This document shows positions 25,588 through 26,036 of a DNA stretch of 64,000 nucleotides, one piece after another; within the stretch, counting starts at the first letter, position 1, and the number at the start of each line of letters is the position of its first letter. Source of the stretch: Escherichia coli (GTDB lineage: Bacteria; Pseudomonadota; Gammaproteobacteria; Enterobacterales; Enterobacteriaceae); NCBI RefSeq assembly GCF_030013595.1, contig NZ_CP122768.1. The stretch is one strand, 5' to 3'. The notes beneath the pieces are model-generated. The model did not search any database. It saw nothing but the letters and a program-made list of their open reading frames with translations, and was not told the DNA's origin. Position numbers and translations under genes: made by a program.

Positions 25588-25619
25588 CAAGGGCGCGCAA
25601 ACCCTCTATACTGCGCGCC

Positions 25620-25996
25620 GAAGCTGACCAGACAGTCGCCGCTTCGTCGTCGTCCTCTTCGGGGGAGACGGGCGGAGGGGAGGAAAGTCCGGGCTCCATA
25701 GGGCAGGGTGCCAGGTAACGCCTGGGGGGAAACCCACGACCAGTGCAACAGAGAGCAAACCGCCGATGGCCCGCGCAAGCGGGATCAGGTAAGGGTGAAA
25801 GGGTGCGGTAAGAGCGCACCGCGCGGCTGGTAACAGTCCGTGGCACGGTAAACTCCACCCGGAGCAAGGCCAAATAGGGGTTCATAAGGTACGGCCCGTA
25901 CTGAACCCGGGTAGGCTGCTTGAGCCAGTGAGCGATTGCTGGCCTAGATGAATGACTGTCCACGACAGAACCCGGCTTATCGGTCAGTTTCACCTG
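25620..25996 (+). ncRNA. rnpB: RNase P RNA component (M1 RNA)
   Basis: Sequence GAAGCTGACCAGACAGTCGCCGCTTCGTCGTCGTCCTCTTCGGGGGAGACGGGCGGAGGGGAGGAAAGTCCGGGCTCCATAGGGCAGGGTGCCAGGTAACGCC...CGGTCAGTTTCACCT recognised as the 377-nt M1 RNA including the conserved GGAAAGTCCGGGCTCC P4 region. Confidence 0.9.
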
Positions 25997-26004
25997 TTTT
26001 ACGT

Positions 26005-26036
26005 AAAAACCCGCTTCGGCGGGTTTTTGCTTTTTG
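26005..26036 (+). terminator. Intrinsic terminator of rnpB
   Basis: aaaaacccgc-ttcg-gcgggttttt hairpin followed by gcttttt immediately 3' of M1 RNA. Confidence 0.7.

Follow-up and report, generated by a model that had tools for sequence, protein, structure and literature searches.

The 64,000 nucleotides of Escherichia coli chromosomal DNA analysed here (the window) carry rnpB, the gene for the class A RNA of RNase P (M1 RNA), whose mature product occupies positions 25620-25995 of the plus strand. The gene had been called M1 RNA in an initial annotation that proposed an Rfam search as a check, and we confirmed the call: the covariance model for class A RNase P RNA, RF00010, gives 25620-25995 a score of 317.5 bits (gathering score 100; E = 7.5e-104), the match spans model positions 1-367 of 367, and the sequence is identical to K-12 rnpB save one G. 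The conserved P4 strands, GAGGAAAGUCCGG and ACAGAACCCGGCUUA, are both present and are aligned to the model with the posterior probability symbol '*'. Compared with the RF00010 consensus, the gene has an 18-nt insertion in the P3 loop, which is shared with other Enterobacteriaceae; the class A model is otherwise covered end to end with no notable deviation. Given its near-identity to K-12 M1 RNA, the product is expected to catalyse the 5' maturation of pre-tRNA. No Rfam family other than RF00010 and no tRNA gene was found in the 64-kb window. A 1-kb query centred on the rnpB junction was matched in 5,425 of 5,426 complete E. coli genomes; rnpB is annotated in all the matches listed, and garK adjoins it in nearly all of them. 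Several open reading frames overlap rnpB (for example 25466-25993, minus strand, 175 aa). We rejected them as genes: they are mechanical reading frames in a GC-rich RNA gene, and they are annotated neither in K-12 nor in the closest genome.

The gene upstream is garK (24442-25587, plus strand), which encodes glycerate 2-kinase and is the last gene of garPLRK. Read from the start equivalent to that of K-12, at 24442, the protein is 381 aa long and matches the NCBIfam equivalog NF007668 with 845 bits over residues 1-381 of 381; the closest genome and K-12 both have a garK annotation at the equivalent place. According to the list of open reading frames, garK stops with a TGA at 25585-25587. This leaves 32 nt (25588-25619) before the first nucleotide of rnpB at 25620, exactly the spacing that had been claimed from the sequence, and the gap in K-12 is the same (garK ends at 3270625 and rnpB occupies 3270216-3270592). 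The gene order garR-garK-rnpB-yhaC is likewise common to the window and to K-12, where rnpB (b3123), with its proximal promoter rnpBp (P-1), lies downstream of garK (b3124). Between a point about 55 nt inside garK and the terminator stem, the window differs from K-12 only by the missing G and by one base of the trailer, a T where K-12 has an A, two bases past the mature M1 end. The -35 hexamer, spacer, -10 hexamer, discriminator and terminator hairpin are thus all identical to those of K-12, and the tail of the terminator is T5 in the window and T4 in K-12.

We located the rnpB promoter by a promoter scan combined with comparison to K-12 and to other species. On the plus strand it consists of a -35 hexamer, GTGACA (25584-25589), a 17-nt spacer (25590-25606), a -10 hexamer, TATACT (25607-25612), and a GC-rich discriminator read from the sequence as GCGCGCC (25613-25619). 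The TATACT hexamer had been noticed in the garK-rnpB spacer by the initial annotation and is indeed there, but one base to the right of the position given then (25606-25611); it ends 7 nt short of the RNA 5' end, G25620. The same annotation held that the promoter must partly overlap the 3' end of garK. This proved correct, because the TGA that ends garK lies inside the -35 hexamer. The arrangement GTGACA-N17-TATACT has 10 of 12 consensus matches in the promoter consensus scan, and in Enterobacteriaceae the promoter-proximal part of the spacer, AAACCCTC, is also conserved. GTGACA-N17-TATACT in exactly this form has a single occurrence in the 64-kb window, against 0.00 expected, although this pattern was picked post hoc. 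Generic promoter-like matches are frequent (10 in 2 kb, with 4.1 expected), so that the support for the rnpB promoter comes from its conservation in 101 of the 102 species listed and from its identity to K-12: the comparison with the K-12 promoter that had been proposed gave 100% identity, base for base, over the region from about -90 to +1.

Transcription of rnpB reportedly starts at the mature M1 5' end, which carries a triphosphate, as Reed and colleagues in 1982 and Sakamoto and colleagues in 1983 are said to have found. The promoter resembles the stringently controlled promoters of the rRNA and tRNA type in that a GC-rich discriminator, GCGCGCC, lies between the -10 hexamer and +1 and in that the product is a stable RNA. 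Unlike the rrn promoters, it has no conserved sequence upstream of -37 across the species listed and has coding sequence there instead; because of this lack of conservation, an rrn-type UP element or an array of Fis sites is not evident at rnpB. The discriminator is of the stringent-control type, and identity to K-12, together with the literature and established knowledge, suggests that the promoter would be under stringent control here as well. Mutational studies have reportedly addressed the rnpB promoter, including its -35 region, as well as the stringent response (Jung & Lee 1997; Park et al. 2002). In a CRISPRi screen of E. coli K-12 MG1655, guides on rnpBp or on rnpB itself caused a fitness defect (10.1101/2020.03.04.975888), which also speaks for this promoter.

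We surveyed the promoter across species with a probe consisting of the first 21 nt of M1, which was run on species-representative genomes and assumes nothing about the upstream sequence. The survey yielded at least 102 readable loci from Enterobacteriaceae and Erwiniaceae. In 101 of the 102 species loci listed, (G/A)TGACA is followed after exactly 17 nt by TAnnnT and by a discriminator of 7 or 8 nt that ends in CGCGCC. The -10 hexamer is TATACT in 65 of these 102 loci, and TATTAT, TATCAT, TACACT, TATAAT or TAATAT at the same spacing in the remainder; among the matches listed, the Erwiniaceae mostly have TATTAT, TATCAT or TACACT. Discriminator positions -6 to -1 are 93-99% conserved in the ungapped columns of the 102 loci listed. 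In 20 loci the discriminator is 8 nt long, which puts two registers into that column table; the architecture was therefore counted by motif search. Across the differing upstream contexts of the same 102 loci, no conservation was found upstream of about -37. Upstream of the promoter lies garK in about 55 of the Enterobacteriaceae loci listed, where it usually stops exactly 32 nt before +1, rsmI in 34 of the Erwiniaceae loci listed, and neither of the two in about 20 of the 102. Since the upstream gene varies by lineage while the promoter is invariant, the promoter is what selection acts on. The sole locus of the 102 listed without (G/A)TGACA at -35 is that of Siccibacter colletis (L024, 45 nt upstream of rnpB), which has TTGCAA there; its garK ends about 80 nt before +1, so that stop codon and -35 hexamer are naturally uncoupled.

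At the other end of the gene, a terminator scan and folding identified the intrinsic terminator rnpB T1 at 26003-26035 on the plus strand. A 12-bp stem (26003-26030) with six G-C pairs and a UUCG loop is followed by five T residues (26031-26035); the structure folds with -19.4 kcal/mol (z = -3.47), and none of 200 shuffled sequences was as stable. The strong terminator hairpin that had been placed at 26005-26036 was hence essentially right. rnpB T1 is a characterised terminator whose termination has been measured and which is reused as a genetic part (PMC3643576). The rnpB terminator has also been employed in plasmids of the Lee laboratory. That transcription would end at 26003-26035 in this strain is supported by the identity of the hairpin to K-12 rnpB T1. 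The primary transcript (pM1 RNA) would then carry a 3' trailer on the plus strand, probably extending over 25996-26031; we take its length to be 36 nt, as in work from the Lee laboratory, which puts the primary 3' end at about 26031, where the T-run starts. M1 is made as this precursor and is matured by RNase E, according to the literature on it.

We also examined the terminator in the 83 species loci listed that have enough 3' flank, placing the M1 3' end by local alignment. A hairpin with a T-run lies within 70 nt of the M1 3' end in 70 of the 83. The stems vary yet stay paired through compensatory changes (CCCGC/GCGGG, CCCCGC/GCGGGG, GCCCGCAG/CTGCGGGC and CCTGCCA/TGGCAGG). Two kinds of departure were seen besides. 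In Salmonella enterica subsp. arizonae (L051) and Winslowiella iniecta (L075), some 25 inserted nucleotides, GCTGAGGGATCCCCAGTAATGG, split the rnpB hairpin, which has no T-run, while in several other species (loci L010, L028, L036, L060 and L068) a long inverted repeat, AAAACAATACGTTGGTGT...ACACCAACGG, stands in place of the canonical terminator. Insertion or recombination events at the 3' end of rnpB may have left these split or replaced terminators behind.

The convergent neighbour beyond the terminator is yhaC (26103-27290, minus strand), as given by the list of open reading frames and by the closest genome. Its stop codon lies 107 nt from the M1 3' end in the window, with a single terminator and no 113-bp repeats in between. 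In K-12 the same interval measures 613 nt, a clean difference of 506 bp: after T1, K-12 has three further 113-bp repeats and REP elements, all absent from the window. Each of the K-12 repeats duplicates the M1 3' end and the terminator (K-12 locus L001, positions 2104-2716, compared with window positions 25996-26103). Both the long and the short 3' flank are common among E. coli genomes, the number of repeats varies, and matching places per E. coli genome range from 1 to 7. We rejected the idea that the AT-rich DNA (30% GC) just past the terminator is an island that had entered at the 3' end of rnpB, the stretch being yhaC-yhaB-tdcR, the normal E. coli neighbourhood.

An insertion element lies elsewhere in the window, at 40383-41859. 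This IS3-family (IS1397-like) element occupies the same site as a copy in the closest genome, in the opposite orientation; the two copies are 98.6% identical, and their flanks are at least 99.9% identical. This suggests that the two copies entered one hotspot independently of each other. The target of IS1397 is the REP/BIME palindromic unit.

Almost certainly, this locus is the canonical rnpB transcription unit of E. coli, read from a compact promoter of its own and ending in its own terminator, T1; no observation speaks against this. We base this on the identity and coordinates of rnpB, on its identity to K-12 and on a promoter and terminator architecture that is conserved across species. Sigma-70 RNA polymerase would start at G25620, the mature M1 5' end, driven by the compact promoter made of GTGACA, the 17-bp spacer, TATACT and the GC-rich discriminator. 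Transcription would stop at the intrinsic terminator T1 (26003-26035). The resulting precursor would have about 36 nt of 3' trailer, which RNase E-dependent processing would remove; what is left is mature M1, the RNA that makes RNase P catalytic. Transcripts of the gar operon could run on into rnpB, and the proximal promoter would be the functionally sufficient source of M1. For this strain, identity to K-12 and the literature are the grounds on which we infer the start site, the stringent control and the trailer length.

The difference from K-12 within the RNA itself lies at 25724-25729 on the plus strand, where sequence comparison shows a run of six G residues (G6) in place of the seven (G7) found in K-12 and in the closest genome; this is why M1 is 376 nt long as assembled here and 377 nt in K-12. 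If G6 were real, the strain would have a rare variant of an essential ribozyme. An identical 65-nt segment with G6 is indeed present in complete E. coli genomes, in only 69 of 5,425, and the gene as assembled still reaches 317.5 bits on RF00010, as a genuine allele might. Three observations stand against it. Firstly, the closest genome, which is 99.95% identical over 35 kb, has G7. Secondly, the alignment to this genome over about 38 kb contains three indels only, and all three are single-base losses in G/C runs of the window. One is that in rnpB; another, at 27399, removes a base from a G7 run in yhaB (minus strand) and shifts the frame at about codon 149; the third, at 44788, removes a base from a C4 run in yhaH (minus strand) and shifts the frame at about codon 15. 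That this stretch of about 38 kb has no other indels points to assembly errors rather than to pseudogenes. Thirdly, the lineages and hosts of the genomes with G6 are unrelated, and of the 12 among the matches listed 6 have clustered accessions (CP127255-CP127316), which suggests a batch effect. The G6 run in rnpB is thus probably a homopolymer assembly error, and a genuine 376-nt allele of this strain seems unlikely.

The stop codon inside the -35 hexamer recurs outside E. coli. In 77 of the 102 species loci listed, a long open reading frame, of 100 codons or more, has as its stop codon precisely the TGA in the -35 hexamer, 32 nt from +1 in 59 loci and 33 nt in 18. In the Erwiniaceae, rsmI directly abuts rnpB (L016, L062, L074, L079, L092, L098 and 28 more of the loci listed), and rsmI stops on the TGA that lies within the -35 hexamer of rnpB. 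One example reads ...CAGCAGGGTGAG TGA CA, so that the protein ends in QQGE*, like RsmI of E. coli. The junction in Erwinia, Pantoea, Tatumella, Mixta and others therefore has the same promoter architecture as in E. coli and the same placement of the upstream stop codon; it differs in that the upstream gene is rsmI and not garK, in its -10 hexamer (TATTAT, TATCAT or TACACT) and in a discriminator of 7 or 8 nt. In the E. coli window rsmI (5957-6820) is found some 19 kb upstream of rnpB, and the aga cluster, agaR, yhaV-prlF, garD and garPLRK lie between the two. This arrangement suggests an ancestral rsmI-rnpB junction that was later split by insertion of the aga-gar block, with garK now using the same TGA. 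In a literature search covering a limited set of papers, we found none that links rnpB with rsmI/yraL.

Such recurrence invites the idea that the stop codon was placed in the -35 hexamer by selection, as a coupling device rather than as a by-product of compaction: termination of upstream translation, or the traffic of RNA polymerase, would modulate occupancy of the rnpB promoter, or the stop would keep ribosomes off the M1 sequence of read-through RNA. The 77 loci, found under two unrelated upstream genes, garK and rsmI, speak for this idea. Most of them, however, descend from two ancestral junctions rather than having arisen independently; moreover, the promoter is unchanged in the 21 of the 102 loci listed that have no long open reading frame stopping at this TGA, and in a few species with garK (L034, L100) the stop of that gene comes about 10 nt sooner. 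Since the -35 hexamer itself contains TGA, any abutting reading frame in that register must stop there. Compaction and the TGA within GTGACA adequately explain the pattern, and we regard a selected coupling device as distinctly improbable. The same low probability applies to the related proposal that the TGA is a conserved stop shared with the abutting gene, rsmI ancestrally, as Erwiniaceae still show, and garK once the aga-gar block of about 19 kb had entered the Enterobacteriaceae lineage, in a zero-length junction kept by selection. Were it true, ribosomes might be released exactly at the promoter, so that read-through RNA would go untranslated and be exposed to RNase E or Rho; alternatively, occupancy of the rnpB promoter might be tied to upstream transcription.

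The initial annotation also raised the possibility that read-through from the gar operon contributes to the M1 precursor. Scanning 25000-26003 revealed no terminator-like site on the plus strand between garK and rnpB. Upstream-initiated rnpB transcripts are reportedly degraded in the main by RNase E and not matured into M1, as Ko and colleagues are said to have found in 2008, and read-through RNA would share this fate here. The literature lists a garP-garL-garR-garK-rnpB transcription unit (quoted in 10.1101/2020.03.04.975888), and together with the missing terminator this leads us to expect physical read-through. In the CRISPRi screen cited above, knock-down of garK, garR, garL or garP caused no fitness defect, because an intra-operonic promoter rescues rnpB expression (10.1101/2020.03.04.975888); a defect with rnpBp or rnpB but not with the gar genes means that the proximal promoter is sufficient. 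The proposal is hence partly supported: gar read-through exists but is dispensable for M1. That it should be a significant physiological source of M1, for example under induction by galactarate or glucarate, is very improbable even with an open garK-rnpB interval and a recorded transcription unit, given that gar knock-down is harmless and rnpBp or rnpB knock-down deleterious, that mature M1 would demand an endonucleolytic cut exactly at +1, that upstream transcripts are said to be degraded, and that the upstream gene changes by lineage (garK, rsmI, others) while the promoter does not.

The canonical rnpB transcription unit, as we read this locus, is essentially identical to that of K-12, which has already been annotated, mapped and mutationally dissected, so that its importance is small; the rnpB locus, its promoter, T1 and its 3' processing are already known and have been studied since the early 1980s. 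The only mildly new by-product of the comparison is that the TGA in the -35 hexamer terminates rsmI in Erwiniaceae and garK in Enterobacteriaceae. Across these families, the rnpB promoter behaves like a self-contained module: evolution has exchanged the gene next to it (rsmI, garK or others) on the upstream side and left its roughly 36 bp undisturbed.
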